A DNA stretch of 64,000 bases from Candidatus Daviesbacteria bacterium (GCA_016187025.1 JACPKM010000004.1:228887-292886), one strand, 5' to 3'; counted from the stretch's first letter, positions 1 through 14,886 are shown. Notes: generated from the letters alone by a model not told the origin. Numbers and translations are program-made.

Positions 1-1
1 T

Positions 2-1195
2 AATGCCTGTGTTACTCCCACTACCGGTACTACTGCCTGCGCCCAGCCTACAAACCCAAATCCCCCATCCGGTTGTACCGGAGGGCTTTGTTGTGCTGTC
101 TGCGGGGACGGGATATGTGATGGGTATAACGGAGAAAATGCTTCTAATTGCAACAGTGATTGCGGATCAGGCGGAGGTGGGGGCGGTGGAGGTAGTAATC
201 CTTGCGACGGTTTAGCTGCTACAGGCAGAGGAGCAGGAGCATGTTGCAGTTCAGACAGCCAGTGTACAGATGGGCTTTGTTGTAACAGTAATGGTACGTG
301 CGGGACTTGTGGGAACATCAGGAGCCCTGGTACGGCCGGATGTGGCTTTAACTGTGCCGGAGGTGGCAATAGCCTTTGTGCAAACTTTTTGCATTGCGTT
401 GGGACTGATGAATCAATGAATCCGCCATATCCTCCCAAAGATACCTGCTGGGAACCAAGCCGAGGATTAGATGATCCATGCGGAGGCGACCATTGCAGCT
501 GTGGTGCCGGCCTTTTCTGCGGATGGACCGGCTCAGGTGCGAGATGCGTTTGTGCCACCTCATGCGCACCGGCAAGCTCTGTGGCCTGCGGAACTCAGGC
601 TAGAAACTGCGGTGCAGACTGCGGATACACCGGAACATATTGTCCGACCGCGGGTGAAGTATGCATAAGCAACCGGTGCCTGCCTCAGCCCAACCCTCCT
701 GTCCATGTCTGCTATCCGGCCTCCGGATTACCACAGGATATTGACCTGTGTAATAACGAAGCTGCCATCTCTTTGGCCAAGACAAACATCTCTTTAAAGA
801 ATGCCGGGCCGGCTAATGCCTGCAGCACCCATACATTCAGGTTTTGGATCTTTACCAATCCCGACTATATTACCGGCCCCCTTCCTCTGCCAAGCGGTGG
901 CAATAATCCTGCAGAGGTGGTCTATGATTCGGGCTGGATGACTTCTGACCTGAAAAATTTTAACCAGGTCTTATCCATATCTGCGGGTTTGGCTCTTGGT
1001 TATGACTCAATTTTGTTTGATGGTACTTCGTATTATTGGAGGGCCCAGGCCTGGTCGGAATCCTGTAACCTGTTTTCTGCCCTTTCCAATGCCTGGATGT
1101 TTAAATATACCCCTGTTGACCCGTATCTTCAAACTACCCAGGGGGATGTGCATACAAACAAAGAGATAGATGTTTCAGGCGGGCCTCCTAACTAA
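2..1195 (+). CDS. Cysteine-rich secreted repeat protein (5' partial; continues from before window in frame 2)
   Basis: Frame 2 is open from nt 2 to the stop at 1195. The listed ORFs 3..215 and 389..1195 are fragments; true reading frame joins them. Many CxxC/CC...C...DG.C spacings (e.g. GGLCCAVCGDGICDG, CCSSDSQCTDGLCCNSNGTCGTCG), Gly-run linker, no catalytic motif recognised. Confidence 0.5.
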   Translation, partial: NACVTPTTGTTACAQPTNPNPPSGCTGGLCCAVCGDGICDGYNGENASNCNSDCGSGGGGGGGGSNPCDGLAATGRGAGACCSSDSQCTDGLCCNSNGTCGTCGNIRSPGTAGCGFNCAGGGNSLCANFLHCVGTDESMNPPYPPKDTCWEPSRGLDDPCGGDHCSCGAGLFCGWTGSGARCVCATSCAPASSVACGTQARNCGADCGYTGTYCPTAGEVCISNRCLPQPNPPVHVCYPASGLPQDIDLCNNEAAISLAKTNISLKNAGPANACSTHTFRFWIFTNPDYITGPLPLPSGGNNPAEVVYDSGWMTSDLKNFNQVLSISAGLALGYDSILFDGTSYYWRAQAWSESCNLFSALSNAWMFKYTPVDPYLQTTQGDVHTNKEIDVSGGPPN

Positions 1196-1204
1196 ACCAA
1201 AAGA

Positions 1205-4200
1205 ATGAGAAAAATTAAGCTTGCTGCTACCGTAATCATAATACTTATATTAACAGTTATTTTTTCCATTCAATACCAAAGCCCTGTTTTTGCCCAAAGT
1301 TCATGTGACCCAGCCAACATTGGAACCAACCAATTAGTAGGATGTTTATATAACTGGACAAGCACAAGTAACTACTTTGCAACACTGGATACAGATGCCC
1401 CATCATCTGATATAATTTCCTCTGTAAATACCTCCCAAGTTGTTTTCGGGCACGATTGGGGTATAAGTTCTGCTTCAAGCACAACAGGAGCTGATACTTT
1501 CTCATCCAGATGGAAAGGTAATATTACCTTTCCGCCAGGGACATATAAATTCTATACCAACTCTGATGACGGAACTAGGGTATACCTCGGAGTTGGAAGC
1601 ACTGCAAACATACTTAAAAATAATGGTACTACAGCTTCCTGGTCTGACCATGCAGCAACTTTAAGGTTTGAATCAAACCCTGTTTATATTGGTACCCAAA
1701 CTAACCAGCTTGTTACTTTAGAATTCTATGAGAATACCACGAATGCTTCAATCATATTTGGTTGGGATTATTCCAAGGCTGACCTTTATATACCAGACCT
1801 TTCAGCACCAGGCCCATATTCCAGGGGAGGCAATTATACATTTACTGCTACAGTAACCAATGGGGGCCAGGGCGTATCTCCTGCAGTAAGAGGCAGGTTT
1901 TGTATAGATAACCCAAGTTGCAGCTCAAATACCTCGGGAAGGATAGGCATTGATGACATATTAATTAACAATTTTTCTTCAGGTTTTTCAACAACTATTA
2001 CTTCACCAACCTGGACAGCTACCACAGATTCCCACACTGTGACTTTTTGTGCTGATGTAGCGGGGGTGGTTAATGAGACAGATGAAACAAATAACTGCAG
2101 AACCACTGAATTTATTGTCTTGCAACGCTGCGAACCGAACACAGCTGGAACTAACCAGTTATTAGGTTGTATGTATAGCGGCACTAATTTTAATGCCCTC
2201 AGTATAACTGCACCTGAAGGAATTATACTATCCCCTCCTGCTTCCGCTGTACCTGATTCTGCCCTGGCTATCTCCCGGGACTGGGAGATTAGCCCAAACC
2301 TCACAGGTAGTTTAGGAACAACTGATTTCTCTGCCAGATGGAAAGGTAATTTTTACTTTAAAGCTGGAACTTATCATTTCCGCGGTGGGTCAGATGACGG
2401 TATAAGAGTATATATAGATGGAGTTTTGAAAACCGGAGATTTAGAAGAATGGATAAACAGAAGTTATAGTGAGCATGGCCTTTTTTCTGTCACTTTCGAT
2501 GCACCAGGGTACTACCTGGTAACACTTGAGTATTATCAAGGAACAGGGGGTGCCAAAGTAAAATTGGGTTGGGATAAGGACCAGTCTACCTCTTCCGACC
2601 CGGTTAGTCTTTCTTTTTGTCAATCTAACGAACGGAACGAAGGCTTGATTTCTGCCAAAAGCATTACGGATGAGAGTATTTTTGGTAACCTGAACCAAAT
2701 TTGTGTAGTGGACCCGGAAAAAGCACCCTTTGTCCCTTTTAAAATCCCCAAATATGATGATTTGAAATCAATTTACTTTGACCAGGCTAAACAACCAGCC
2801 TCTTTCACCAAACATGAATCCCTAACAGGTGATAAAAACCACAATGATATTTCAACGGCAGGCAGTACCAGCCATTTGTATCATATAAAAAAAACCACTC
2901 CATTCTCTGCCGATGGTAACCTAAGCATTAGGGGTAATTTTCTAGGTGACCAAACCGGTACTCAAACCAGAGTAGTGTTTGTTGACGGCGATTTAAATAT
3001 AGGCCCTACGCCAAATAACACGTTTAAACATGGGGATGGACAATCGGGCATAGTGTTTGTAGTAAAGGGAGATATAAATATAGACAAGGGTATGGAAGAA
3101 ATTGACGGGGTATATATTTCTGAAGGGAACATATGCACATCCTTTAATGGCATAAGCTGCGATATCGTTGACATCCGGGTCTTTACATCCCAACTAATAG
3201 TCAACGGAAGCCTTATTTCCTTAAACCCGGCAAAGCCTATACAATTCAGAAGAAACTTAATTGATAATACTGAGCCCGGGGAAAAGGTTATTACTCAGGT
3301 AAAATATCTGGTAATCTTAAAAGATATATTTTCAGATACTTTACAAAGATGGTCTGAAATTCCGGCAGATGTGCCGATTCCCGGAAGCCTATGCGGTGCT
3401 GCCAGAACATCCTCGGATTGTCGACAGAGAAGTATATATGGTGCCGGTGCATGCGAATGGAAAGAGTGTAACAGTGGGGTTGTTTCAGCTTGCTGGCCCG
3501 AGGGAACAAGCGACTTAATTGCCTGTCCGCTTTCAGCCACTTGTACAGCCAATTCTACCTTTGTTGGAATAAACCAAGATGTAGTATGGAATATACAGGC
3601 CTCAGGCGGAATTAATACTCCCTATGAATATTTTTGGAATGAAGGCGCGGGTCTGGCAGCAGGCAATCAAACCCTAACCAAAAGATATACAACTACAAAT
3701 GATGCTGTTAATGTTTCAATCAGGGTTGAGCAATCAGGTAGTAGTCAATACGCTACTAATGCCTGTCCTACAGTTTCTGTTGGATGTATGAAGTATGTAG
3801 ATAGTGATGGAGATACTTATGGAGATGAAGATGGAGAGCTGCAACGGATAGATTGCTCTACAGCCGGGTATGTTGCCAATAATACTGACTGTGATGATAG
3901 TAATAATAAAATTTATCAAACTTTATCTACAGCAGCAAGAGATGAAGACAGAGACGGTTACACTCCGGCCGCTGTATCTAATCAATGCGTGGGTGGGACA
4001 TCTGCTATCAGCGGCAGGACTTATTATAAAGATGCAGCAGGCGCTTTTACCTGGTTAGCTGCAGCTTCTACAAGCATAGATTGCTATGATAAAAATGCCA
4101 TTGCTCATCCATATCCATCTGGCAGCAACCCCGCTTACCAGACAGTACGCAGGGGAGGAGCGGCTGTCACCGCCATCTCTACTAATCCTGATTCAGCAAG

Positions 4201-4480
4201 GAATTCAGGTTACTCCTTTGACTATAATTGTAATGGAAAAGTAGACATGAACCGTAGTACGCGAAGAACTGGAACAGATTATTGCGAAGATACTGGTAAT
4301 AATGTAAGTTATTATAAAAGCTGTGGTGATGTGAACATTGGAGAGGCTGAATGTGGCACAACAGTTTCCATTGCATGTACATCCTCCACGGTTTGTAATA
4401 CGAAATGTGGTCCAGATGGTTGTTACTTTACTGCATACCAGGGAGATAATAACAATACTCAAACAGTTGCGTGTTATTAA
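1205..4480 (+). CDS. Large secreted surface protein with two PA14-like domains and MopE-like Asp-rich metal-binding motifs
   Basis: N-terminal signal/TM (cleavage-like VFA-QSS). Two copies of the PA14/GLEYA signature (FSSRWKGNITFPPGTYKFYTNSDDGTRVYLG and FSARWKGNFYFKAGTYHFRGGSDDGIRVYIDG). C-terminal DGDTYGDEDG / TDCDDSNNKIY / DEDRDGYTP motifs resembling putative metal-binding (MopE-type) repeats. Confidence 0.6.
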   Translation: MRKIKLAATVIIILILTVIFSIQYQSPVFAQSSCDPANIGTNQLVGCLYNWTSTSNYFATLDTDAPSSDIISSVNTSQVVFGHDWGISSASSTTGADTFSSRWKGNITFPPGTYKFYTNSDDGTRVYLGVGSTANILKNNGTTASWSDHAATLRFESNPVYIGTQTNQLVTLEFYENTTNASIIFGWDYSKADLYIPDLSAPGPYSRGGNYTFTATVTNGGQGVSPAVRGRFCIDNPSCSSNTSGRIGIDDILINNFSSGFSTTITSPTWTATTDSHTVTFCADVAGVVNETDETNNCRTTEFIVLQRCEPNTAGTNQLLGCMYSGTNFNALSITAPEGIILSPPASAVPDSALAISRDWEISPNLTGSLGTTDFSARWKGNFYFKAGTYHFRGGSDDGIRVYIDGVLKTGDLEEWINRSYSEHGLFSVTFDAPGYYLVTLEYYQGTGGAKVKLGWDKDQSTSSDPVSLSFCQSNERNEGLISAKSITDESIFGNLNQICVVDPEKAPFVPFKIPKYDDLKSIYFDQAKQPASFTKHESLTGDKNHNDISTAGSTSHLYHIKKTTPFSADGNLSIRGNFLGDQTGTQTRVVFVDGDLNIGPTPNNTFKHGDGQSGIVFVVKGDINIDKGMEEIDGVYISEGNICTSFNGISCDIVDIRVFTSQLIVNGSLISLNPAKPIQFRRNLIDNTEPGEKVITQVKYLVILKDIFSDTLQRWSEIPADVPIPGSLCGAARTSSDCRQRSIYGAGACEWKECNSGVVSACWPEGTSDLIACPLSATCTANSTFVGINQDVVWNIQASGGINTPYEYFWNEGAGLAAGNQTLTKRYTTTNDAVNVSIRVEQSGSSQYATNACPTVSVGCMKYVDSDGDTYGDEDGELQRIDCSTAGYVANNTDCDDSNNKIYQTLSTAARDEDRDGYTPAAVSNQCVGGTSAISGRTYYKDAAGAFTWLAAASTSIDCYDKNAIAHPYPSGSNPAYQTVRRGGAAVTAISTNPDSARNSGYSFDYNCNGKVDMNRSTRRTGTDYCEDTGNNVSYYKSCGDVNIGEAECGTTVSIACTSSTVCNTKCGPDGCYFTAYQGDNNNTQTVACY

Positions 4481-4569
4481 ACACCTCCCTCTTGACTTAA
4501 GGGTGGAAATTATGAATAAATGTAATAAAGGACGAAAAAATTTTACATCGTCTATTTTTAAGAAAGGGG

Positions 4570-5154
4570 GTGAAAATTTTGAGAAAAACTGCTCATTTGC
4601 GGGTTTACCGCAATTTAATCTCTTCAAAGAAACCTTCAGGTTTCACATTAGTTGAACTCTTAGTTGTTATTGCAATTATTGCAGTTCTGGCAGCAGTTAT
4701 TGTGCTCATTATTAACCCTCTTGAGTTAACCAGGAGAAGCAGGGATGCAGCCCGTCTTACAGACCTTTCTAACTTGCAGCAAGCAATTAATGTTGCTGTG
4801 CAGGAGGCTACAACATCCGGTGCAGCTATTCTATGTAAGAGCGCGGGAGCATATCCTTGTAATGGCTCTTCTCATACGGGTACCAGGGCTTCGGATGGTA
4901 CAGGATGGGTTAAAGCTGATCTGAGTGCACAAAAAAGCGTTTCAGTTCCAACATTACCTATTGATCCGATTAACGACACAGCAAAACATTATACATACTG
5001 TGCAGATACTGATGCATGGGAGATCAATACCGCATTAGAGTCGGACCAGCTTAAGGTGAAGATGACCAGTGACGGTGGTGACGAGGATGATAAGTATGAA
5101 GTTGGGTCGAAACTGGATTTAATTATGGCAACCGGAGGATCTTGTACATATTAA
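4570..5154 (+). CDS. Type IV pilin (candidate major pilin), GTG/TTG start
   Basis: Class III signal: KKPSG-FTLVELLVVIAIIAVLAAV (G|FTLVE prepilin cleavage/methylation motif). 4 Cys in C-terminal half. First pilin of the operon. RBS-like AAAGGGGGTG upstream. Confidence 0.7.
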   Translation: MKILRKTAHLRVYRNLISSKKPSGFTLVELLVVIAIIAVLAAVIVLIINPLELTRRSRDAARLTDLSNLQQAINVAVQEATTSGAAILCKSAGAYPCNGSSHTGTRASDGTGWVKADLSAQKSVSVPTLPIDPINDTAKHYTYCADTDAWEINTALESDQLKVKMTSDGGDEDDKYEVGSKLDLIMATGGSCTY

Positions 5155-6050
5155 TGTTTAGTATTTGGTTTGGTTTAATAGTTGGAGCGGTTTTAGGCAG
5201 CTTTATCAAGGCAATTGCTGATAGAAGCTTACAAAACCGCTCCTTTTTTGGCAGGTCAAACTGCCAAAGATGCAATAAAAATATTGCCTGGTATGACCTT
5301 TTTCCTATAATTTCCTTTTTAATCCTTCGGGGTAAATGTAGAAATTGCGGTAAAAACATTGGGAAAGAGTATGTTTTGGTGGAGGTGGTATCAGCAGTAA
5401 TATTTGCCTTTTTTTTCTTCCAAATTTTTAAAACTTTTCCCGGGACGGAAAATTTACTAAAACTTACACTTTTTTTAGCTGATTTAGCTACAAAAACCTT
5501 TTTTATAACTATACTTTTGATTTTAACTATTACAGACCTTAAAAAAATGCTGATTCCTGACCGGGTAATACTCCCCTCTTTGCTTATTCTGGGAGCATTA
5601 CTGGTTCTTTTCACCGGTTATAAAATTTGGTATCTATATTATTCCCTTTCTCAAAACCCAATTGGTCTATATTTACTCCCCCCCCACAGTGATTATTTCA
5701 TCAGGCATGTTTTAGCCATAATAGATCCCCTTAAGTGGTCATTTTTAATGTTAGTTTTAATTTCCGGTTTTTTTATAACGTTAATTTTAATAACTAAAGG
5801 AAAAGGGATGGGGGGCGGTGATGTTAAGCTGGGAGCATTTATGGGCCTTGGTTTGGGGTTTCCAGGTGCACTGGTGGGGATAATGGTTGCCTTTTTTTCA
5901 GGGGCAATAATTTCGCTTTTTTTAATAGCTTTCAGAAAGAAAAGTTTTGGGGAGTCTGTTCCTTTTGGCCCCTTTTTAGTTTTAGGTAGTGTAATTGCCC
6001 TATTTTGGCAAACTGCAATTATTAATTGGTATTTAAACCTTTCGTTTTGA
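5142..6050 (+). CDS. pilD: Prepilin peptidase (A24 family, PilD-like)
   Basis: N-terminal tetracysteine CQRC...CRNC zinc motif, multiple TM helices, GGGDVKLGAFMGLGLGF catalytic-region signature typical of A24 prepilin peptidases. Confidence 0.8.
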   Translation: MYILMFSIWFGLIVGAVLGSFIKAIADRSLQNRSFFGRSNCQRCNKNIAWYDLFPIISFLILRGKCRNCGKNIGKEYVLVEVVSAVIFAFFFFQIFKTFPGTENLLKLTLFLADLATKTFFITILLILTITDLKKMLIPDRVILPSLLILGALLVLFTGYKIWYLYYSLSQNPIGLYLLPPHSDYFIRHVLAIIDPLKWSFLMLVLISGFFITLILITKGKGMGGGDVKLGAFMGLGLGFPGALVGIMVAFFSGAIISLFLIAFRKKSFGESVPFGPFLVLGSVIALFWQTAIINWYLNLSF

Positions 6051-6076
6051 GGCTAATTTTTCAAAAATCTGATATA

Positions 6077-6106
6077 TTGACAAGGTTTAGCAGTTGTGTG
6101 TACTAT
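6077..6106 (+). promoter_or_regulatory. sigma70-like promoter candidate (TTGACA-18-TACTAT) upstream of pilin gene
   Basis: TTGACA at 6077-6082 and TACTAT at 6101-6106 seen directly in sequence. Lies ~10 nt before ATG at 6117. Confidence 0.35.
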
Positions 6107-6116
6107 TAATTTAGTT

Positions 6117-6605
6117 ATGAAAAAGTTACTGCCCAAATCCGCAAATAACCCCAAAGGTTTTACTTTAATAGAGCTTTTGGTGGTTATCACAATAATTGCA
6201 ATACTGGCTACAGTAGGGGTGATATCGTACACGAATGTACAAAAGAGAGCCAGGGATGACAGAAGAATACAAGATGTTAACCAGATAATTGCAGCATGGT
6301 TAACTAATACACCTGCAGGTGGGCAACCAGGAGCTCTTGATGCCACCTGGTTTGCAAACGGCCAGGTTCCTACGGATCCTATGACCGGTCAGATGAAATG
6401 TGGAACAAATAATACTGCTACATGTAAATACTGTTTGAGAACAAATGCAGATTTTTGCTCTGCACCAGATGAAGATGGGAATGGGGGTGATACTGAGGTA
6501 ATCGATGAGATGAATCCAACAGTTCCTTTGACTGTTTGTGCAAATATGGAAAATGATATCAAAACCGGAACTGCTATAACTAGATATTATTGTAAGTCTA
6601 TATAA
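6117..6605 (+). CDS. Type IV pilin/pseudopilin
   Basis: NPKG-FTLIELLVVITIIAILATVGV prepilin N-terminus. Start chosen at ATG 6117 rather than upstream GTG 6096. Confidence 0.65.
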   Translation: MKKLLPKSANNPKGFTLIELLVVITIIAILATVGVISYTNVQKRARDDRRIQDVNQIIAAWLTNTPAGGQPGALDATWFANGQVPTDPMTGQMKCGTNNTATCKYCLRTNADFCSAPDEDGNGGDTEVIDEMNPTVPLTVCANMENDIKTGTAITRYYCKSI

Positions 6606-6620
6606 ACCCTTCTTAGGTTA

Positions 6621-7139
6621 ATGTACATCTGGCCAAACTCTCTGAAAGGCAGAAGAAATAATTTTGGATTTACCATGGTTGAGTTGCTGGTGGTAATTAC
6701 CATTATTGCCATCCTTACAACCATTGGAGTTGTTTCATATAGCAGGATAATGGCAAATACCAGGGATTCAAAAAGAGCTACTGATTTAAACATTGTCCAG
6801 AGCGCCCTGGAGCAATACCATGCTGACCAACACTATTATCCCGCTGCAATAAGCTTTACTGACTCATTTACAAATCAAACCGGTAATCCCATTACCATAC
6901 CACTAGCTTCCATCATAACTTATTTAAATGAAATGCCGTCTGATCCCCTATCCACCCGTCTGTACAATTATGCAGCTTCTCCAACCGGCTGCACAAATAG
7001 CAGTGGTAGTATTTGCAAAAGTTATTGTTTATATGCCAAGGTGGAAAACCCCACTAAAAATGCAAAAGCCCGGGCAGATTGCCCAACATTAACAATCGAC
7101 GAAACAACAACCTATGATTTAGAAATGGGTCCTCCTTAA
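6621..7139 (+). CDS. Type IV pilin/pseudopilin
   Basis: NNFG-FTMVELLVVITIIAILTTIGV prepilin N-terminus. Confidence 0.65.
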   Translation: MYIWPNSLKGRRNNFGFTMVELLVVITIIAILTTIGVVSYSRIMANTRDSKRATDLNIVQSALEQYHADQHYYPAAISFTDSFTNQTGNPITIPLASIITYLNEMPSDPLSTRLYNYAASPTGCTNSSGSICKSYCLYAKVENPTKNAKARADCPTLTIDETTTYDLEMGPP

Positions 7140-7179
7140 ATCTCTAGTAACTTAAATTTAAATATGCTACCGTTAATAT

Positions 7180-7719
7180 ATGCCCAAAGGTTTCACCCTT
7201 GTAGAAATTTTAGTTGTTGTGACAATTATAGGTGTTTTATCAGCTACTACCTTTGTCAAGTTAGGCCCAGTCACATCTGTGCAAATAATAAATAAAGCCT
7301 TGACAGAAACCCAGAGTTTAATAAGAACTGCCCAAAGCAATGCTACAACTTCAACCATCTGTGACACTAGAAGCGCCCTTTCCTGGTCTGTATACTTTGA
7401 CAGTACTGACCAGACTAAAATATACTTAAAATGCAATGACCGAACTACCCCAATAAAAACCCTAGCTTTAGAAAAAGCCAAAATAGAATCTATTGCCGGT
7501 AACGGAAACTCCTGTTTTAGCCAAGGAGCTACCACTTCTTATCCTACATCAAATGTCACAATAAAATTTTATACTTTGTACAGCAAAATGGAGTTTTTAG
7601 GGGATGATTGTATAGCTGAAAGTACAAGGCTGACAGTAACTCTAAAGACAGATAATACCTCAGTAGAAAAAACTACTGATTTTACAATAGACCAGGGCGG
7701 AGGCATTAATGTCAACTAA
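7180..7719 (+). CDS. Type IV pilin/pseudopilin
   Basis: MPKG-FTLVEILVVVTIIGVLSA prepilin N-terminus. Confidence 0.65.
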   Translation: MPKGFTLVEILVVVTIIGVLSATTFVKLGPVTSVQIINKALTETQSLIRTAQSNATTSTICDTRSALSWSVYFDSTDQTKIYLKCNDRTTPIKTLALEKAKIESIAGNGNSCFSQGATTSYPTSNVTIKFYTLYSKMEFLGDDCIAESTRLTVTLKTDNTSVEKTTDFTIDQGGGINVN

Positions 7720-8239
7720 AAATTCATCACAAAGCGGCCAGAGCTTAATTGAACTTATTATAGTTATTATGCTGGGAGTTTTAATTGTGGGGGCCCTGAC
7801 TTTTGCCACAATTGCCTCATTGAGAAATTCCCAGCTTGCAAAAACCCAATCCCAGGCTACAAAACTGGCTCAGGAGGGATTGGAAGCTGTCAGAAGGATC
7901 AGGGATGCTGATAAAAGGGTAACCTACACCTATGTTCCCAGCAGCGGAACCTCTACAACGACTGATGAATTTAGTGATTTATGGTCAGTCCCCTGCCCTT
8001 CAACCGGCAAGTGCTATTTTATTCTATCAAGTTCAAATACTGTTCTTCAGGAAGGGGGTTCAAGTAGCTATGAAGATATTTCAGGGAGGTTTACAAGGAG
8101 GTTTACAAGGCAGGTGATAATAGAAGATGGAAAAAGTACCGGAGTGGAAAAACTGGTGACGGTTTTGGTCAAATGGACTGATTTTGCCGGTGAACATGAA
8201 TCCAAGGTAACAACAATTCTAAGAAATAGAGATCTGTAA
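7709..8239 (+). CDS. Pilin-like minor pilin (atypical +1 residue)
   Basis: SQSG-QSLIELIIVIMLGVLIVGAL: class III-like signal with Gln instead of Phe at +1. Overlaps previous gene by 11 nt (operonic). Confidence 0.5.
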   Translation: MSTKNSSQSGQSLIELIIVIMLGVLIVGALTFATIASLRNSQLAKTQSQATKLAQEGLEAVRRIRDADKRVTYTYVPSSGTSTTTDEFSDLWSVPCPSTGKCYFILSSSNTVLQEGGSSSYEDISGRFTRRFTRQVIIEDGKSTGVEKLVTVLVKWTDFAGEHESKVTTILRNRDL

Positions 8240-8241
8240 AA

Positions 8242-8871
8242 ATGCAAAAAATATTAAATAAAAAGGGGTTTACACTTGTTGAAATGCTGGTGGTTATTGC
8301 CATACTGGGTATTTTTGGTTTAATGATGAGTGTTATATATATCCGTTCTTTAAAGGGAAGTTATAAATCCGAAGTTCTTTCTGCAATTAAAAGAAACGGA
8401 CAGCAGGTTTTGGAGGTAATGGATAAAACAATCCGTAATGCTGATAATATAGTTTGTGTAAATAATGCTTTCACTACTAATGATAGGACTTTAAAAGTAA
8501 TTGTTGTAGAGAAAGAAGGAAAATATACCAGATTTAGCTATATCCCCCCTGTTACCTCATCTCCAAAAAGGAACGGTTATATAGCCCAGGATAATTTAGA
8601 CTATGATCCAAATGAGTTACCATCTACTTTATGCGCGGAAAATATTGAGCAGGCATCTTCAACTTATAAAGTATTAACAGACAGCACACCTGCTGCTGGT
8701 TCTGGTTTGAGCGTCTCAGTTACAGATGCAGAAATTACCAGTGACAAATTGGCAGGGTTTAAGGACTTGGTTACCATATCTTTGTCAATTGAAGAAGGGG
8801 TTTCAATTTCATCTGATTTGGCAGGAGAAATTAGTCCGGAGACATTCCAAACAACCATTCAGTTGAGGTAA
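8242..8871 (+). CDS. Type IV pilin/pseudopilin
   Basis: NKKG-FTLVEMLVVIAILGIFG prepilin N-terminus. Confidence 0.65.
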   Translation: MQKILNKKGFTLVEMLVVIAILGIFGLMMSVIYIRSLKGSYKSEVLSAIKRNGQQVLEVMDKTIRNADNIVCVNNAFTTNDRTLKVIVVEKEGKYTRFSYIPPVTSSPKRNGYIAQDNLDYDPNELPSTLCAENIEQASSTYKVLTDSTPAAGSGLSVSVTDAEITSDKLAGFKDLVTISLSIEEGVSISSDLAGEISPETFQTTIQLR

Positions 8872-8881
8872 TATTAAAATA

Positions 8882-9781
8882 ATGAAAATCCACCAAACTC
8901 AGGGACAAACAATATTAATTTTACTCCTGGTAATGAGTGTGGCTTTGGCTTTAGGAGTTTCAATTATCCAAAGGAGCTTAACTGATGTTGCTACCTCCAC
9001 AAAAGTTGAGCAATCTACCAGGGCGTTTTATACAGCTGAAGCTGGTATAGAGAGGGCCTTAACAGGTGATAGTACGGGAGTAACCTTCAGTGATAACAAC
9101 TCACAAGCTATAGTTTTTGATTCAGGATTACTTCCCGCCCAGTCTACGCAGGAAGGCCAAGCAGGACAAGCTTTGGAATATCCCCCGGTATCTAAAGAAG
9201 ATATTGCCCAAGTCTGGTTGGCGAATCCTTCTACAAACCCTATGGCCCCTCATTACAGGCAATCTTCGCTAGATATATATTGGGGTGAACAAAATATTAA
9301 TACTACAGACTCTGATAATATGCCAGCAATTGCAATTGTACTTATTTATGAAGACCAGGGGGAATATAAGGCATCACGGTTTTATTTAGATTCTGATTTC
9401 AGGAGGATAGAATCTAACGGATTTAGGGATGCTACAATTGGGTCCGGTTCATGTGGGAATATATCTATAGAGACTAGTATGGGGCCAGGCCGGAGGTTTT
9501 ATTGTAAGTATACCCTGACAGATTTACCTTTAAGCATGATACTGCTAAGAGCAAGGATGTTATACAATAAATCAAACCAACCCTTTGCAGTCGGACCTAA
9601 ATGCGTAAACGATGACCCTGATTACCCAAATGATTGTTCTCTGCCCCCGCAAGCTAGAGTGATTACATCAATTGGTGTTTCCGGTGAAACTGAAAGAAGA
9701 GTACAGCTATTTAAACTCGATAAAGTAGTTCCGCCGTACTTTGATTACGCTATTTTCTCTGCCGGAGAAATATCTAAATAA
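8882..9781 (+). CDS. PilX-N-like minor pilin
   Basis: N-terminal GQTILILLLVMSVALALGVS hydrophobic segment followed by STRAFYTAEAGIERAL, matching the PilX N-terminal (..RAF.AAEAG..) pattern. Confidence 0.55.
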   Translation: MKIHQTQGQTILILLLVMSVALALGVSIIQRSLTDVATSTKVEQSTRAFYTAEAGIERALTGDSTGVTFSDNNSQAIVFDSGLLPAQSTQEGQAGQALEYPPVSKEDIAQVWLANPSTNPMAPHYRQSSLDIYWGEQNINTTDSDNMPAIAIVLIYEDQGEYKASRFYLDSDFRRIESNGFRDATIGSGSCGNISIETSMGPGRRFYCKYTLTDLPLSMILLRARMLYNKSNQPFAVGPKCVNDDPDYPNDCSLPPQARVITSIGVSGETERRVQLFKLDKVVPPYFDYAIFSAGEISK

Positions 9782-10203
9782 TGAACTTTTTCCGTAAAAA
9801 TCTGTTTCCACAAAGAGGCTTTTCTTTAATAGAGATTATGCTGGCAATTTCAACAATCTCTATCTTAATTATTTTAATCGCCAGTTTCCCCAATGCTATT
9901 AACTTAGTCACTAAAAGCCAGCATCAGAGCCTGGCAAGAGAAATCATATCCAAACAAATTGAAGATTTAAGAAGCCTTTCGTATATAAATTTGAGCTTAG
10001 GAGAAACACAACTGCTGGATTCGCGGCTGTCATTGCTTCCCAATGGAAACGGAAAAGTATTAGTTGAAAGCTGTGACGGAACTACTTGCTCAAATAATGA
10101 AAAAACTAAAAAAATTACTGTTAGGGTTTCTTGGAAAGAAGGTTCAAGAACTCAGGATGTCAATGTTTCAACCTTAATATCTGAAGGGGGCTTAAGTAAA
10201 TGA
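9781..10203 (+). CDS. Pseudopilin (GspJ/PilV-like)
   Basis: PQRG-FSLIEIMLAISTISILIILIAS prepilin N-terminus. Start overlaps previous stop (ATGA). Confidence 0.6.
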   Translation: MNFFRKNLFPQRGFSLIEIMLAISTISILIILIASFPNAINLVTKSQHQSLAREIISKQIEDLRSLSYINLSLGETQLLDSRLSLLPNGNGKVLVESCDGTTCSNNEKTKKITVRVSWKEGSRTQDVNVSTLISEGGLSK

Positions 10204-10778
10204 AAATGAAAAAAAACGAAGGTGGTTTCACTCTTGTAGAAGTGTTAATGGCACTTTTAATATTTTCTGTACTATCAGGCTTCCTTCTTTTGATATTCAC
10301 AAATAGTGCAGGTGTGTTTCAAAGCGAATCAATAAAAATTGAGCAGGGGTTAAACGTAAACGATGCTTTGGCCAAAATTAGGGAAAAAGTTAAACTGGCA
10401 AGTTTCGTGTCAGAACAATTCCAGGATGGTGCAGCAACATTTATTTCCGGTAATGAAATTCTAATCCTGGCAGAATCAAGTATTGACTCAAGCGGAAACT
10501 TAATTCAGGATACCTTTGATTATCATGTTTTTACCAAAGAGGGTGATAAGTTATGGTTTAAGTTATTTGCAAATACTCAAAGCAGCAGAAAAAACCAAAA
10601 CCAGTTACTTACAAAAAATGTAGCAAATATTAAATTTGAGTACTTTGATGCAAATAACCTACCGGTTGCCCCTAAGGATTCTGATAAGGTGAAGGTAACT
10701 TTGGCCTTAAACCAAAAAAATGGATTAAACTTATCAACTATTATTGCAACATCAGATGCAACACTGAGAAATAATTAA
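10200..10778 (+). CDS. Pseudopilin
   Basis: NEGG-FTLVEVLMALLIFSVLSG prepilin N-terminus. Confidence 0.6.
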   Translation: MKMKKNEGGFTLVEVLMALLIFSVLSGFLLLIFTNSAGVFQSESIKIEQGLNVNDALAKIREKVKLASFVSEQFQDGAATFISGNEILILAESSIDSSGNLIQDTFDYHVFTKEGDKLWFKLFANTQSSRKNQNQLLTKNVANIKFEYFDANNLPVAPKDSDKVKVTLALNQKNGLNLSTIIATSDATLRNN

Positions 10779-10779
10779 T

Positions 10780-12558
10780 ATGTTTTTTAAACCTAGAAAC
10801 GAGTCCGGTCAGCTTTTTGCAGCGGTTTTGATAATAACTGCTTTTGTTTTGTTTATTACCCTGATAATAATAACTGGCTCTCAGCTTTACTTCCAAAATA
10901 GCAGCTATTCAATTGAGTCAGAAAAAGCTGTAGCTTTAGCTGAGGCAGGAGTTGATAAAGCTATAGCATCTTTGAATATTACAGGAGGAGCCTACAACGG
11001 AGATGAGGAGGTTAATCTGGGGGAAGGTTCTTTTTCTGTTAATGTTGTTTCCCAGGATGCTGCGACAAAGTTGATTGAGGCAATTGGATATGTGCCCGGT
11101 AAACAAAAACCTAAAATAAAAAGAAAGGTTAAAATCAAACTTACAAAAGGGACTGGTATATCATTTATTTACGGTATTCAAGTGGGTGAAGGGGGGATGG
11201 ATTTAGGAAACGATAATGTAGTAGCCGGGTCTGTATATTCCAATGGTAGTATTACTGCCAAAAATAATAATCAGGTTTCAGGTGATATTTGGGTTGCTAG
11301 TGCTCCTCAAGCCACACCAGACCAAACACAAGACTGTGTAGGGGTGAATTGCCAAGACTTCTTATTTGGAAAAAATATCGGAGGTGAGGTCATTTTAGAT
11401 TTAGCCCAAAGTTTTACCCTTTCTCAATCTAATAATCTAAATAGAGTTAAAGTCAAAATGAAAAAAACCGGTAATCCCTCTGATGTGACAGTAAGAATAA
11501 TGGCAGATAAAAACAACAAGCCAGATAAAAATACCGTACTTGCAACCGGAAACTTAAATAGTAATCTGGTAACTTCTGAATATGGTTGGGTAGAAGTAGC
11601 TTTTGATAAAACACCTGCTCTTTTGGCCGGTACAACATACTGGTTAATGGTTGATACCTCTTTAGATAGCAGTAATTACTGGTCATGGCAAAACGATTTG
11701 GCCAGAAGTTATGGTATGGGAACAGCTTATTGGTCTGATGATTGGCAGAAGGGAAATCCAGTTTGGAGTGAGATATCAGGAGATTTGAGTTTTGAAATCA
11801 TTATGGGTGGATCTCCTAATGTAGTCGATTCTGAACAAGTTTTTAGTGTAGGCGGAGATGTCCACGCCAATACTATCAAAAATCTAACAATTCAAGGAAG
11901 TGCCTACTATAAAACTATTATTACCTCTATGGCTTCCAGTTATTTCCCTGATTCCGAGGATCCCTCTCCTAAAACATTTCCTATCTCAGATGCGAATGTT
12001 GAAAGTTGGAAAGCTGAGGCAGAGACAAACGGTACAGTAACAGGAGATATTGACAGTTGTGTTTCTGCCTTGGAATCAAAAAAAATTGTCGGTAATGTAA
12101 TCTTTAATAGTAATTGCTCGGTAACTATTAAAAGTCCAATTTGGATTACAGGAAATCTAACCTTAAATACCAATAATTCTCTCGTTTTATCAAGTGAATA
12201 CGGCACTACCTCAGGTATTATTATTGTTGATGGGGCTATTGAATTGGGAAGCAATAATAGACTAGAGGGAACTGGTCAAGGCAGTAGTTTATTAATGACT
12301 CTTTCAAGTTATGATTCGAGGACCAATGGTATTTCAGCTATCAAGTTAACCAATATTGGAAACAGCGGAGTGTTTTATGCCAGTAAGGGTATTATCGAAC
12401 CTGGAAATAAGAACAAGTTCAAGGAGCTTACTGCTTGGAAAATAAAGCTTCTCAATAACAGCGAGATAAATTATGAAACTGGTTTGTCCAGCACATTGTT
12501 TTCTTCAGGGCCTTCCGGTTCTTTTTCTCTGGTTAAGGGATCATACCAAGTTAAATAA
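10780..12558 (+). CDS. Large (592 aa) PilX-N-like pilus-associated protein, candidate tip/adhesin subunit
   Basis: N-terminal ESGQLFAAVLIITAFVLFITLIIITG then AVALAEAGVDKAIASLN (PilX_N-like). Long beta-rich C-terminal region with no catalytic motifs. Last pilin-like gene before pilM. Confidence 0.5.
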   Translation: MFFKPRNESGQLFAAVLIITAFVLFITLIIITGSQLYFQNSSYSIESEKAVALAEAGVDKAIASLNITGGAYNGDEEVNLGEGSFSVNVVSQDAATKLIEAIGYVPGKQKPKIKRKVKIKLTKGTGISFIYGIQVGEGGMDLGNDNVVAGSVYSNGSITAKNNNQVSGDIWVASAPQATPDQTQDCVGVNCQDFLFGKNIGGEVILDLAQSFTLSQSNNLNRVKVKMKKTGNPSDVTVRIMADKNNKPDKNTVLATGNLNSNLVTSEYGWVEVAFDKTPALLAGTTYWLMVDTSLDSSNYWSWQNDLARSYGMGTAYWSDDWQKGNPVWSEISGDLSFEIIMGGSPNVVDSEQVFSVGGDVHANTIKNLTIQGSAYYKTIITSMASSYFPDSEDPSPKTFPISDANVESWKAEAETNGTVTGDIDSCVSALESKKIVGNVIFNSNCSVTIKSPIWITGNLTLNTNNSLVLSSEYGTTSGIIIVDGAIELGSNNRLEGTGQGSSLLMTLSSYDSRTNGISAIKLTNIGNSGVFYASKGIIEPGNKNKFKELTAWKIKLLNNSEINYETGLSSTLFSSGPSGSFSLVKGSYQVK

Positions 12559-12559
12559 T

Positions 12560-12593
12560 GTACAATTTACAATAAACAATTTACAATAAAGTT
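12560..12593 (+). repeat. Direct repeat (ACAATTTACAATAAA x2) immediately upstream of pilM
   Basis: tgtACAATTTACAATAAAcAATTTACAATAAAgtt read directly in the 35-nt gap before the pilM ATG. Confidence 0.3.
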
Positions 12594-13631
12594 ATGGCAA
12601 AAACTAGTATAGGTTTAGATATAGGTTCCTCAATAATAAGGGTTGTTGAACTTGAAAAAGATAAGGAGAGAGTTAAACTAAGATCTTTGGCCAGTATCGC
12701 TTCCCCTCAACCAGGTATGAATGGAGAGGGTGATGTTGAGTTGGAAGCAGTCGCAAGTACCATTAAAAGTCTTCTTACGGCTGCCAAAATTGAGGGTAAA
12801 GATGTTGTTGTTGCACTGCCTGAGTCCAAAGTGTTCACCCGGGTAATTGATGACTTACCCTATTTAACAGATAAAGAACTTTCCTCCTCTATCACCTATG
12901 CTGCTGAAGAGTTTATTCCTCTGCCCCTGACAGATGTGAACCTAAATTGGCAGATACTTTATAGATCAAACCCTAAAGATAAAAATCCGCGTACTGTGGT
13001 ATTTTTAATTGCTTCACCAAAAACCTTAATTAACAAATATGTTAAGGTTTTAACTTATGCAGGAGTTAGGCCTAAAGCCTTAGAAACAGAAACCATGGGA
13101 GCGACCAGGTCTTTGGTTGGCCCTAATCCTTTTGCTCCTACAACCATAATAATTCAGATAGGTAGTTCAACAACGGATTTAACAATTGTATCCAAAGGGT
13201 TAATTTGGTTAACAAGGTCACTGTCTACCGGAGGTTTAGCTCTAACAAGAGCTATAGCCCAGCATTTTAACTTTGAGATGAGTCAGGCTGAGGAGTATAA
13301 AAAAGTGTATGGGATGTTGGAAGATCAGTTGGATGGCAAGGTATACGAGGTCTTAAAACCTCTAATTGATATTATTGCCCAGGAGAGTAAAAGAGTAATC
13401 CAGGCTTTTGCAGAAAAATACCCCACCAGCCAAATAAAAAGAGTTGTTTTGAGCGGAGGTGGAGCGAAAATGCCTGGAATTGTTATTTACTTTGCCTCAC
13501 TCTTAGGGTTGGAAGTCCAGGAAGCTGATCCCTGGTATACAATCATAAAGGACCAAACTCTTGCTACCAAGCTTTCCCAGGATGCTCCAGCTTATTCAGT
13601 CGCGGTTGGCTTGGCGTTAAGAGAGGAGTGA
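12594..13631 (+). CDS. pilM: Type IV pilus assembly protein PilM (actin-like ATPase fold)
   Basis: N-terminus SIGLDIGSSIIRVVEL (actin/Hsp70-like phosphate-1 motif), ~345 aa, followed by pilN/pilO-like genes. Confidence 0.8.
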   Translation: MAKTSIGLDIGSSIIRVVELEKDKERVKLRSLASIASPQPGMNGEGDVELEAVASTIKSLLTAAKIEGKDVVVALPESKVFTRVIDDLPYLTDKELSSSITYAAEEFIPLPLTDVNLNWQILYRSNPKDKNPRTVVFLIASPKTLINKYVKVLTYAGVRPKALETETMGATRSLVGPNPFAPTTIIIQIGSSTTDLTIVSKGLIWLTRSLSTGGLALTRAIAQHFNFEMSQAEEYKKVYGMLEDQLDGKVYEVLKPLIDIIAQESKRVIQAFAEKYPTSQIKRVVLSGGGAKMPGIVIYFASLLGLEVQEADPWYTIIKDQTLATKLSQDAPAYSVAVGLALREE

Positions 13632-13635
13632 AATT

Positions 13636-14187
13636 ATGCAAAAATTTGCCATATCTATAAACTTGCTTCCTGAAGAATTTATCAAACAGCAGATAAAAAC
13701 GAAGAAATTTTACCAGATTCAGCTAATTGGAACGGTCGTCCTGCTGACCTTCATATTTTTATCCTCTTTCACTACGGCTTTAACTATTTTGCAAAACCAA
13801 AAACTAAAGCGGGTTCAAACAGAGGTATCTGCTGCCCAAACAACAGTTACCAGTTTTGGCAAGACAGAACTGGATCTATTACTACTAAAGAACCGTTTAC
13901 AAGTTGTTAACCAGCTCATAGAGGTTCCTTCAAAGCAGAGGGAGATTTATGAAAAATTATATAAATCCTTACCTCCTTCTATTGTAGTAAGCTCATTTAG
14001 TGTTGATAGTACGGGTAACGTATTAACATCACTTGTCAGTACCGATATTAAGATTTTAGATGATTTTATAAATAAACTTACAAGCGAAAATGAGCAATAT
14101 AAATTTGTCAAAGAAGTAAAAATTGAGACTCTAAACAGAGGAAGAGACGGAGCTTTTAGATCTACCATAAGAATCAATAACCAATAA
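13636..14187 (+). CDS. pilN: PilN-like pilus assembly protein
   Basis: INLLP motif near N-terminus (ISINLLPEEF) followed by single TM helix. Position after pilM. Confidence 0.6.
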   Translation: MQKFAISINLLPEEFIKQQIKTKKFYQIQLIGTVVLLTFIFLSSFTTALTILQNQKLKRVQTEVSAAQTTVTSFGKTELDLLLLKNRLQVVNQLIEVPSKQREIYEKLYKSLPPSIVVSSFSVDSTGNVLTSLVSTDIKILDDFINKLTSENEQYKFVKEVKIETLNRGRDGAFRSTIRINNQ

Positions 14188-14190
14188 TGT

Positions 14191-14886
14191 ATGCAACAGA
14201 AATCTCTCTTAGCTTTATACACAAAATATAAATTATATATTTACCCGGTACTTATAGTTTTGGCTTGCCTGATACTAACTTTTACAGTCATTCTTTCGCA
14301 GGTGACAAAGTTTTTAACAAATAGTAAAACCGAATCAGAACTGGTAAATAAGTTAAAAAATATGGAAGTGAAAGCAGATGAACTTGAACAGCTGAGTAAT
14401 AGAGACTTGTCTAAAGATGTTAATGTGGCTTTGTTTGCTTACCCAAGTGAAAAAGATTACGGGCAAGTTATTGGCCTGGTGCAGAGAATTACGGCACAAT
14501 CAGGATTTAATATTAGTAATTTTCAGTTTAATGATATTTCTGAAGCAGCACAATTTGGATCAGCCTATGGAATTAAGTTAGAGGTTTTAGGAGCCAAAGA
14601 CAGGCTTAGCGAGCTGATTGAAAAGCTGGAGGCTCCGCCAAGATTACTCAAGGTAAGAACTTTAGGTATAAACTCGGGAGCAGATAATACTATAGTTACA
14701 GCTGTAATCTCTTTGCATGCTTATTACTCTGACTTATCGAAAAATGCGAAAGTCCTTCCTGATCAGCCGCTATCTAAGCTTTCTGATACAGATGAGGGTG
14801 TTTTGCGTGAACTGTCGAGATATGATGTTTTGAGTGGGTCTTCCAATTTATATAAACCTCATGGTAAAGTAAACCCATTTGAGTAA
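14191..14886 (+). CDS. PilO-like pilus assembly protein
   Basis: Single N-terminal TM helix, coiled-coil region, size and position after pilN. No strong motif. Confidence 0.45.
   Translation: MQQKSLLALYTKYKLYIYPVLIVLACLILTFTVILSQVTKFLTNSKTESELVNKLKNMEVKADELEQLSNRDLSKDVNVALFAYPSEKDYGQVIGLVQRITAQSGFNISNFQFNDISEAAQFGSAYGIKLEVLGAKDRLSELIEKLEAPPRLLKVRTLGINSGADNTIVTAVISLHAYYSDLSKNAKVLPDQPLSKLSDTDEGVLRELSRYDVLSGSSNLYKPHGKVNPFE

Follow-up and report, generated by a model that had tools for sequence, protein, structure and literature searches.

The locus raises the question of what two exported proteins encoded directly upstream of a type IV pilus (T4P) operon are, and whether they belong together. 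The source organism is Candidatus Daviesbacteria (CPR, Microgenomates), which is uncultured and ultra-small, and the window, meaning the whole stretch of DNA analysed, is 64,000 nt long. Both open reading frames (ORFs) were found where the first-pass annotation had called them, on the same strand as the pilus genes (Table 1), with a gap of 9 nt between ORF 1 and ORF 2 and of 89 nt between ORF 2 and the first pilin gene. The interval 4480-4570 was scanned and no convincing terminator was seen there; the two genes may be co-transcribed with the downstream T4P genes. Both products had been described as secreted or surface-type proteins, and this exported look was borne out, each having its own signal sequence, and a cell-wall or membrane anchor was recognisable in neither. 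What our analysis adds is the finding that ORF 1 and ORF 2 constitute a conserved tail/module pair. At a probability of roughly 55%, we favor the reading that positions 2-4480 encode a two-subunit exported lectin-type adhesin, with a tail on the first protein (the carrier) docked on a module of the second, expressed together with the pili.

Table 1. Features at the left end of the window, with the evidence for each.
Feature	Position (nt)	Strand	Evidence or remark
C-terminal 397 aa of the 560-aa secreted Cys-rich tail-bearing carrier (ORF 1)	2..1195	+	ORF, overlapping contig
Two CC..C.DG.C-type Cys motifs	89-118 and 242-280	+	flank Gly8 run 170-193
Cys-poor C-terminal globular domain of carrier, probably FN3-like	710..1117, approximate	+	Cys density, FN3 match
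Conserved C-terminal carrier tail DPYLQTTQGDVHTNKEIDVSGGPPN, proposed docking tag and first beta-helix rung	1118..1192	+	motif comparison
1091-aa module-bearing protein (ORF 2)	1205..4480	+	identical to NCBI HYW42_04410
N-terminal signal sequence (…SPVFAQSSC), predicted by reading the sequence	1205..1294	+	matches module-family HMM 1-43
PA14 domain 1 (aa 33-197)	1301..1795	+	Pfam, alignments
CARDB domain (aa 192-300)	1778..2104	+	Pfam, E 9.4e-14
PA14 domain 2 (aa 309-469)	2129..2611	+	Pfam, alignments, PDB match
Conserved beta-helix module (aa 472-723), C-terminal end …KYLVILKDIFSDTLQRWSEIP	2618..3373	+	
Cys-rich C-terminal extension (aa 724-1091)	3374..4477	+	no significant Pfam family
Asp-rich motifs DGDTYGDEDG…DCDD within the Cys-rich extension	3806-3898	+	
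Type IV pilus operon	4570..14886	+	pilin and Pil-family matches

The 1091-aa protein carries the label 'hypothetical protein', Candidatus Daviesbacteria, at NCBI. The double PA14 reported for it is real, with the PA14 profile (PF07691) matching two stretches (50.6 bits, cut-off 24). Aligned with one another, the copies share 37% identity (E 6e-29); each is 37-41% identical to the single PA14 domain of P0009, and both keep the S-D-D-G motif. A PDB sequence search with domain 2 found the PA14 domain of RsgI3 (6qe7, E 5.9e-13). The GLEYA profile (PF10528), which had been suggested as a further check, matched neither window protein at E <= 1. PA14 domains bind carbohydrates, in the GLEYA/Flo/Epa subgroup in a Ca2+-dependent manner, and those of the window may bind glycans. 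Between the two copies lies a CARDB domain (PF07705, 51.9 bits against a cut-off of 22.7) that had been overlooked.

Also missed was the conserved beta-helix module that follows the second PA14 domain. We defined the module family by an HMM match ending in …KYLVIL…WSEI[PQ], and the window module matched this HMM over aa 475-723 at E 3.5e-91. The family comprised 208 homologues, the majority of them stand-alone proteins of 240-290 aa (~265 aa) with a signal peptide, and these stand-alone modules terminate exactly at …QKWSEI[PQ]. Stand-alone members shared 40-56% identity with the window module. The named sources, Daviesbacteria and Curtissbacteria only, all belong to the Microgenomates, and the family has no Pfam counterpart. 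The module HMM aligns with two separate segments of the 1091-aa protein, aa 4-48 and aa 475-723, which shows that the PA14-CARDB-PA14 block was inserted after the module's signal peptide; the Cys-rich extension is an addition at the C-terminus of the module. Similar extensions were observed on the module proteins P0033, P0066 and P0129. The Asp-rich motifs in the window extension (DGDTYGDEDG, aa 868-877; DCDD, aa 895-898) resemble the MopE-type metal-binding motif in pattern (PF11617; score 7.7 bits, cut-off 27, E 5.8), and the Ca or metal dependence proposed for them would be a guess from that pattern; PF11617 did not match the homologous extensions of P0066, P0129 and P0033.

The best solved structural matches of the module were ice-binding-protein folds, the Thermus pilin ComZ and tapirins, with no significant solved relative in Foldseek (best E 0.07, TM about 0.3). 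TPS domains were likewise among the top structural matches. Conserved positions were mostly hydrophobic core residues, Gly, disulfide Cys and a C-terminal helix. Unlike proteins of the DUF3494/IBP-1 fold and of Pfam DUF7305 (PF23981), the window module matched neither Pfam family at E <= 10. The homologue P0105 did match DUF7305 (29.4 against a cut-off of 27), three of eight single-chain forms matched it weakly, and no mention of DUF7305 was found in the literature searched.

ORF 1 extends beyond the window on the left, and the N-terminal 163 aa of the carrier, including the signal sequence, lie outside it. The full-length protein was obtained from an identical public contig (L001; 14,480-nt overlap, 0 mismatches), on which the ORF is complete at 560 aa, begins with a hydrophobic N-terminal signal sequence and runs without the upstream break that the first-pass annotation had considered. 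The carrier contains 52 Cys, 39 of them in the 397 aa within the window. The CC..C.DG.C repeats reported for it are present in two copies (full-length aa 193 and 244) in a region (89..280) also detected as a DNA-level repeat (D2), and the first block is common to P0020 (76% identity over 42 aa); the glycine run, given as Gly10, is Gly8. The domain at 710..1117 (…GTSYYWRAQAW…) is probably FN3-like; the sole outside match of the carrier family was via an FN3 'YYWRV' repeat protein (P0144). That the Cys-rich protein has no obvious family was confirmed by blank Pfam (E <= 1) and NCBIfam searches, including for the granulin- and Dickkopf-type disulfide-rich domains that had been suggested, and the protein is a near-orphan. 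A search of 1.84 billion representatives gave 5 matches, one of which (P0141) is the carrier's own C-terminal 204 aa (100% identity), and the true relatives were P0142 and P0143 only. All matches to PDB sequences were non-significant, the best being a follistatin-like protein (E 0.067).

Apart from its tail the carrier is hypervariable and disulfide-rich. In the window, it ends in a tail of ~20 residues, YLQTTQGDVHTNKEIDVSGGPPN, located 9 nt before the module gene. The tail consensus is [WY][IL]QxxGDVHSNxxIxxPGGP, and in 18 other tail-bearing proteins of related module loci the motif lies 1-11 aa from the C-terminus. Of the carrier's two true relatives, P0142 likewise has the tail at its C-terminus, where P0143 has a degenerate form. 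Searching 1,277 ORFs for the motif returned 26 matches (two from L001, which duplicates the window), all of them in carriers or fused modules with two kinds of exception, the N-terminus of an L036 protein (an apparent chance match) and a 592-aa PilX-like protein of the window's pilus operon. The tail is the sole conserved feature of the carriers, which are otherwise unrelated, range from 60 to 1147 aa and include proteins with PA14, CARDB, PKD, fn3 or Big_7 domains. It had escaped the first-pass annotation, and it joins both genes into one unit.

An upstream ORF ending in the tail, or a fused motif, was observed at 21 of 33 module loci, and at 17 of the 23 whose upstream sequence extends for 1.5 kb or more. 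Carrier and module genes overlapped by 4 nt in 8 pairs. Carrier, tail and mature module occur naturally fused, lacking a second signal peptide, at L032, L035, L036, L038, L039, L048 and L049; tail motif and module form a single polypeptide in several Daviesbacteria and in Curtissbacteria. A pseudo-fused tail-plus-module was colinear with the single-chain Curtissbacteria form in a forced global alignment, which placed WIQTxxGDVHSN opposite WFETxxGDVGSQ, while a local profile-profile alignment of split and fused forms covered only the C-terminal ~140 residues, with the motif outside. AlphaFold2 gave the motif region of the single-chain Curtissbacteria form a pLDDT below 50, which leaves a beta-helix rung as no more than the proposed placement of the tail. 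In the flanks at hand, some modules (L005, L008, L021 and L034 among them) were not accompanied by a tail gene, and 6 of 14 true metagenome tail matches had no module nearby, several of those flanks being short. Most stand-alone pairs adjoined uppS/mevalonate genes and not a full pilus operon. The two genes are a conserved lineage-specific pair, tail and module being a strictly conserved unit whose pairing is not obligate. Since tail and module are contiguous in one polypeptide in related lineages, we infer that the pair is a split protein whose two halves each carry a signal peptide; the tail may dock physically on the module.

According to the two-subunit reading, the carrier tail would dock after export on the N-terminal end of the beta-helix and complete the helix. 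Docking would unite the variable Cys-rich/FN3-like carrier with the PA14 lectin domains in a multivalent complex, which could bind glycans presented by a partner cell, a host cell or a surface. The complex would be co-expressed with the downstream T4P genes and might act on or alongside the pilus.

The pilus operon encodes a prepilin, a prepilin peptidase, at least 6 further pilin-like proteins, a PilX_N-like protein, PilM and PilO, as well as the 592-aa PilX-like protein, which has a choice-of-anchor R domain and contains GGDVHAN internally, ahead of a repetitive C-terminal region. At 9 of 32 other module loci, the module gene was followed within 710 nt by a prepilin gene, and the prepilins near modules were modular pilins with LamG or DUF1554 domains. 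In two metagenomic loci (L042 and L044), a tail-bearing gene directly preceded a minor-pilin operon. In the trio whose co-occurrence near T4P loci had been suggested as a check, the third element is facultative, because the pair often, not always, adjoins pilus genes. The earlier picture of an adhesion module was partly supported: it stood in its exported proteins, its double PA14 and its recurrent T4P link, and found no profile support in its GLEYA, granulin and Dickkopf parts. Neither window protein is itself a type IV pilin or minor pilin, as neither matched N_methyl and the downstream genes did; nor did either match, in Pfam or NCBIfam, the C-terminal beta-propeller domain of PilY1/PilC tip adhesins.

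The complex may nevertheless associate with the pilus, and a possible, though tentative, alternative is that a non-pilin adhesin, consisting of the complex or of just the module protein, is carried on or loaded by the T4P in the way of PilY1/PilC, tapirins or the ComZ tip pilin. The position of the genes immediately upstream of the operon suggests this, as do the recurrence of pilin genes by modules and of tail genes by minor-pilin operons, the structural matches to ComZ and tapirins, and the internal GGDVHAN of the 592-aa protein. Tapirins are also encoded near type IV pilus loci (bioRxiv 10.1101/359786). Arguing against it are the missing prepilin leader in both proteins, the negative PilY1/PilC profiles, the weak likeness of the 592-aa C-terminus to the module (hhalign probability 10-23%) and the roughly 70% of module loci without a pilin nearby. 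This alternative overlaps the two-subunit reading, the sole difference being where the complex sits.

We regard as rather doubtful that the two are independent secreted or surface proteins of an 'adhesin island', forming no complex, with the tail a functionless leftover of an old gene fission. The non-obligate pairing, the separate signal peptides and the failure of AlphaFold to place the motif are in keeping with it. However, the tail is the sole conserved segment of unrelated carriers and is kept at a fixed distance from the C-terminus, which argues for purifying selection on it; the 4-nt gene overlaps suggest coupled translation, and independent re-fusions exist.

That the module is an enzyme (for instance a parallel beta-helix polysaccharide lyase, hydrolase or esterase), with PA14 and CARDB binding the substrate in an attack on host or environmental glycans, appears unlikely given its non-enzymatic top structural matches (ice-binding proteins, TPS domains, ComZ), the lack of any catalytic family match and conserved positions that mostly belong to the hydrophobic core, Gly, disulfide Cys and C-terminal helix. 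Still less probable is that the tail is a sorting or processing signal for covalent attachment by a sortase- or exosortase-like enzyme instead of a docking strand. Such a signal would fit a short conserved motif placed at the very end of many exported proteins that are unrelated, but no transmembrane helix or basic tail follows it, unlike in LPXTG, PEP-CTERM and PGF-CTERM, it is tolerated internally in natural fusions, and the loci showed no sortase-like gene. That the module truly is an ice-binding or antifreeze protein of the DUF3494 type is very improbable, with no DUF3494 match even at E <= 10, a Foldseek TM of about 0.3 and surrounding adhesin and pilus genes that offer no ice-related context; ice binding is, moreover, not known for most proteins with the DUF3494 fold.

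The two-subunit adhesin we favor shares two bona fide PA14 domains with known PA14 adhesins and sensors (yeast Flo/Epa GLEYA adhesins, the sugar-binding domains of Marinomonas/Marinobacter RTX adhesins, the Clostridium thermocellum RsgI3 PA14 dyad), and the 1091-aa protein is, like the adhesins, exported, multidomain and adhesin-like. The PA14 domain of a bacterial Lap adhesin (6m8m) also matched it, that of RsgI3 being the best solved relative by sequence. Unlike these proteins, it has no GLEYA match, RTX repeats, anti-sigma domain or known anchor, and it carries its PA14 block on a beta-helix module that is specific to CPR. The pair resembles tapirins in adjoining a T4P locus, but the module has only a general beta-helix likeness to the tapirins of Caldicellulosiruptor, without sequence or close structural homology, and tapirins are single proteins with no tail/module split. 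In contrast to Thermus thermophilus ComZ and to modular pilins, for instance PilB of Streptococcus sanguinis, the window proteins lack the prepilin leader G-F-T-L-x-E and are Sec-type exported. The proposed completion of one exported protein's fold by a short terminal strand of another would be analogous to donor-strand complementation in chaperone-usher pili, although the folds are not related, chaperone and usher are both absent and complementation in the window is conjectural.

More speculatively, and with the odds against it at present, Daviesbacteria and related Microgenomates may possess a natural 'tag-and-dock' system, in which a beta-helix module that is secreted separately lacks its first rung and receives it from a portable C-terminal tag of ~20 residues. 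As the tag would complete the module, many unrelated, fast-evolving lectin or adhesin bodies could plug onto one conserved base, itself attached to the type IV pilus or the cell envelope. If true, this would be a previously undescribed mechanism of extracellular split-protein assembly and a candidate host-recognition apparatus of these episymbiont-like bacteria.

The 1091-aa protein was identical to NCBI HYW42_04410, a 'hypothetical protein' from a Candidatus Daviesbacteria MAG, and the window therefore derives from a CPR/Microgenomates genome. The two PA14 domains proposed for it in the first-pass annotation were recovered by Pfam over two stretches, with a score of 50.6 bits (cut-off 24), together with a CARDB domain (aa 192-300) that had been overlooked. 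Identity was 37% between the two PA14 copies and 37-41% when they were compared with the PA14 domain of a homologue, P0009; their closest solved sequence relative was the PA14 domain of RsgI3. A GLEYA assignment was dropped on profile scores. P0009 and a second homologue, P0017, also aligned past the PA14 domains, and a profile of this post-PA14 region retrieved 208 proteins. Most of these were 240-290 aa with an N-terminal signal peptide, ending exactly at …KYLVILRxLxSDTxQKWSEI[PQ]. The family HMM matched both the signal-peptide region of the 1091-aa protein (aa 4-48) and a conserved beta-helix module at aa 475-723 (E 3.5e-91), so that the PA14-CARDB-PA14 block is an insertion between them. 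Large insertions inside the beta-helix itself, at HMM positions ~112 to ~117, were observed in the related loci L030, L032, L035 (7469-10444) and L036 (2128-5025), and include PA14 flanked by repeated Cys-rich ACSGD(S/T)CTDCLI… units. Beyond the module, aa 724-1091 formed a Cys-rich extension with no significant family match, whose Asp-rich motifs resembled those of other module proteins, e.g. P0066; an assignment of these motifs to MopE was dropped (7.7 bits against a cut-off of 27). Named sources of the module family were Daviesbacteria and Curtissbacteria only. Among the MAGs with close module homologues at loci L008-L037 (identity with the Daviesbacteria protein 40-47%), many carry the title 'uncultured Gammaproteobacteria' (binchicken assemblies), apparently a placeholder or a mislabelling.

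Coordinates of the genes and domains considered here
Feature	Location	Strand	Description
Gene 1, Cys-rich carrier	window 2-1195	+	open at left window edge
Gene 2, 1091-aa protein	window 1205-4480	+	
First PA14 copy	aa 33-197, 1091-aa protein		
Second PA14 copy	aa 309-469, 1091-aa protein		
Pilus operon	window 4570-14886	+	begins 89 nt downstream of gene 2; prepilin, prepilin peptidase, further pilins, PilX_N-like, PilM, PilO
592-aa PilX-like protein	window 10780-12558	+	in pilus operon
2076-aa ORF	window 27780-34010	-	Ser/Thr protein kinase at aa 1806-2060
378-aa and 158-aa proteins	L001 1716-3379		upstream of window, same strand as carrier
Modular pilin	L018 716-2110		after module gene
Modular pilin	L019 1052-2308		after module gene
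Modular pilin	L025 7247-8548		after module gene
Modular pilin	L022 5744-6784		after module gene
Modular pilin	L016 12777-13877		after module gene
Carrier	L040 211-2607		module downstream
Carrier	L044 3752-6238	-	minor-pilin operon downstream

Gene 1 was completed from L001, a public contig encoding the same 1091-aa protein, which overlapped the window over 14,480 nt with 0 mismatches and reached 3.9 kb further left. The first-pass annotation would have been undermined by an interruption upstream; on L001 the carrier ran unbroken as a 560-aa ORF with 52 Cys and a hydrophobic signal-type N-terminus (MFFLKLFLNLIILFLILAVLPQSVDALSS). The CC..C.DG.C-type motifs described earlier were also present (two), while the supposed Gly10 linker was in fact Gly8. 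The carrier, whose C-terminus reads YLQTTQGDVHTNKEIDVSGGPPN, was a near-orphan. Only 5 of 1.84 billion representatives were matched in an exhaustive HMMER search, and a word-index homology search with the full 560 aa matched only a 42-aa motif, in P0020. Its only true relatives were P0142, which ends (…FIETKEGSVHSNQEIDLPGGPKP) in the tail, the conserved C-terminal motif of carriers, and P0143, which ends in a degenerate tail. No significant match was found in a PDB sequence search with the carrier, and granulin and Dickkopf assignments were dropped on profile scores. The only version of the carrier in the searched protein collections was P0141 (204 aa, beginning MACGTQ…), a C-terminal fragment from the representative library, and the word-index search returned no full-length self-match. 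Since the ORF encodes 560 aa including a signal peptide, the start of this deposited gene call is probably wrong. G+C was 0.47 across the Cys-rich gene (window 1-2000) versus 0.36-0.40 in most of the window, which may simply reflect its Gly/Cys/Ala/Pro-rich composition. Upstream of the carrier on L001 lie genes for a 378-aa protein and for a single-pass membrane protein of 158 aa, with no family assigned to either. Similar small N-terminally anchored proteins precede the pair in three related loci (L003, L006, L055), and such proteins may serve as an anchor or as additional components. The antisense ORFs within both genes (80-156 aa) were without support. Elsewhere in the window, the kinase near the C-terminus of the 2076-aa ORF was its only recognised domain, the other ~1800 aa having no family match.

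We assembled 33 module loci, comprising the window, three fetched via individual proteins, and 29 distinct loci out of 30 from a one-genome-per-species scan (L011 repeats the L003 contig). Across these loci, the module gene was repeatedly preceded directly by an ORF ending in the tail motif seen on the window's carrier, [WY][IL]QxxGDVHSNxxIxxPGGP, located 1-11 residues from the C-terminus. A tail gene upstream or a fused motif was observed in 21 of the 33, and in 17 of the 23 whose upstream sequence reached 1.5 kb or more. Tail and module genes overlapped by 4 nt in 8 cases. A motif search across the 1,277 ORFs of the loci gave 26 matches (two from L001, a duplicate of the window), all of them carriers or fused modules but for two kinds, an apparent chance match and the 592-aa PilX-like protein. 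The carriers had nothing but the tail in common, ranging from 60 to 1147 aa, mostly Cys-rich, with PA14, CARDB, PKD, fn3, and Big_7 or InlB-type domains in varied combinations. PA14/CARDB was found on the carrier in L013, L025 and L031, and on or within the module protein in the window and L035. In the window the two genes share a frame (window 1190-1210), separated by TAA and three codons (…PPN* T K R M RKIK…). Readthrough of this in-frame TAA was rejected, as it would make the hydrophobic signal peptide internal, and is unlikely to be the point because related loci overlap by 4 nt in different frames.

A metagenome search from the tail side yielded 14 true tails. Four of these were fused to the module, two had a module 1.2 kb downstream, two (L042, L044) lay directly before a minor-pilin operon with no module between, and the rest lacked a module in the flank available, which was often short. 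The carriers of L040 and L044 were 87% identical over the C-terminal 557 aa and differed in their N-termini and downstream neighbour, a comparison which suggests that cassettes may be shuffled around the conserved tail.

In other loci the tail was internal and led straight into the mature module, both in Daviesbacteria (L032, L035, L036) and in metagenomic contigs (L038, L039, L048, L049), with a short linker in place of the module signal peptide, e.g. …AWIKASGDVHSNDWIRASGGPNAITYQGIICPAQSQNPRVTGGLIT…. A related motif, W[FL]ETxxGDVG[SA], was found in Curtissbacteria-type proteins (P0009, P0017, P0021, P0022, P0024, P0037, P0045) directly before a more divergent form of the module, with SWxEVAP at its end. 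We profiled the tail together with the mature module, using 13 split pairs and one natural fusion, and compared this profile with one of the single-chain form. The global alignment was colinear, with WIQTxxGDVHSN falling on WFETxxGDVGSQ; the local alignment of the same profiles covered the C-terminal core only. We read this as one domain split by gene fission into two exported chains which, by the Rosetta-stone argument, would still associate. A rival account is of two independent proteins with a vestigial tail. AlphaFold2 modelled the motif region (GDVGSQ) of single-chain P0024 with a pLDDT <50. Returning to gene fission, the tail and the module rungs had a common G-D-[VIL]-x-[IT] signature (FVDGDLNI, VVKGDINI), as expected if the tail forms one more beta-helix rung, which the sequences lead us to infer.

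The window contained a complete arrangement of carrier, module protein and pilus operon, and no convincing terminator was found between gene 2 and the operon. In 9 of the 32 other loci a prepilin gene followed the module gene at a distance of at most 710 nt, overlapping or within 6 nt in five. These prepilins are modular, with C-terminal Laminin_G_3 or DUF1554/endostatin-like domains; the five in the table (346-464 aa) have a normal pilin domain and a Pro/Thr linker before that domain. The minor-pilin operon of L042 and L044 was colinear with that of the window (PilX_N-like, two pilins, 592-like protein, PilM). Most stand-alone pairs adjoined uppS and mevalonate-pathway genes, and the Curtissbacteria single-chain genes adjoined mreB and glycosyltransferase genes. 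The position of the stand-alone module gene was conserved in L003, L005, L006 and L007, where it converges with uppS (Prenyltransf) and polyprenyl synthase beside the mevalonate-pathway cluster; that of the single-chain gene was conserved in L053 and L054, where mreB and genes for WecG-type and GT4 glycosyltransferases lie downstream. The co-occurrence with type IV pilus loci, put forward for checking in the first-pass annotation, was thus recurrent among relatives but not constant, and with other gene sets alongside elsewhere, the pilus association is far above background but facultative. A pilus-borne adhesin is a rival to be weighed at this point. No recognisable anchor was found on either subunit. 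In the 592-aa protein, a PilX-like N-terminal helix is combined with a choice-of-anchor R domain (NCBIfam, 44.3 bits); an internal GGDVHANTIKNLTIQG motif lies at aa 359, and the 228 aa after it consist of beta-helix-like repeats. This layout parallels the carrier-tail-module architecture. Comparison of its C-terminal part with the module by hhalign (probability 10-23%) weakly indicates that the two may be homologous.

We propose a two-subunit, exported, multivalent lectin-type adhesin, in which the conserved tail of a fast-evolving carrier would join it to a conserved beta-helix 'base', and both would be expressed together with the pilus genes. The domain content, family and taxonomic range, gene pairing, natural fusions and pilin neighbourhood of this picture are observed. 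The tail would dock on the module, the adhesin would bind glycans, its genes would be co-transcribed with the operon, and it may attach to the pilus or cell wall. Less probably, the beta-helix could be that of an enzyme or of an ice-binding protein. Foldseek against the PDB gave no significant match, and neither did a PDB sequence search with the single-chain alignment. The tail could also be a sorting signal. As a PA14/CARDB surface protein the putative adhesin is ordinary, and it would work most like tapirins or the PilY1-type non-pilin adhesins beside pilus genes, yet membership tests placed it in neither group. Its split, tag-like organisation is what sets it apart. No Pfam family was matched by the module members save P0105, just past DUF7305, and literature searches on DUF7305 and on Daviesbacteria pili/adhesins found nothing relevant; neither the module family nor the tail is described in the libraries searched.

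CPR bacteria are believed to rely on attaching to other cells, and no part of their surface machinery is more conspicuous than type IV pili. To our knowledge, what recognises the partner cell is largely unknown. This locus is a concrete, testable candidate, a conserved two-gene unit, recurrent beside pilin genes, in which hypervariable Cys-rich, PA14, CARDB, PKD or FN3 bodies would be coupled via a short conserved tag to a conserved beta-helix module. If the docking is not real, an ordinary PA14 adhesin beside a pilus operon is left. If it is real, the module would be a new uncharacterised protein family of more than 200 members with no Pfam model, the tail and module would be a short natural peptide/protein pair and a possible tool, and small genomes could vary their surface specificity at little cost, exchanging the carrier while the base stays.
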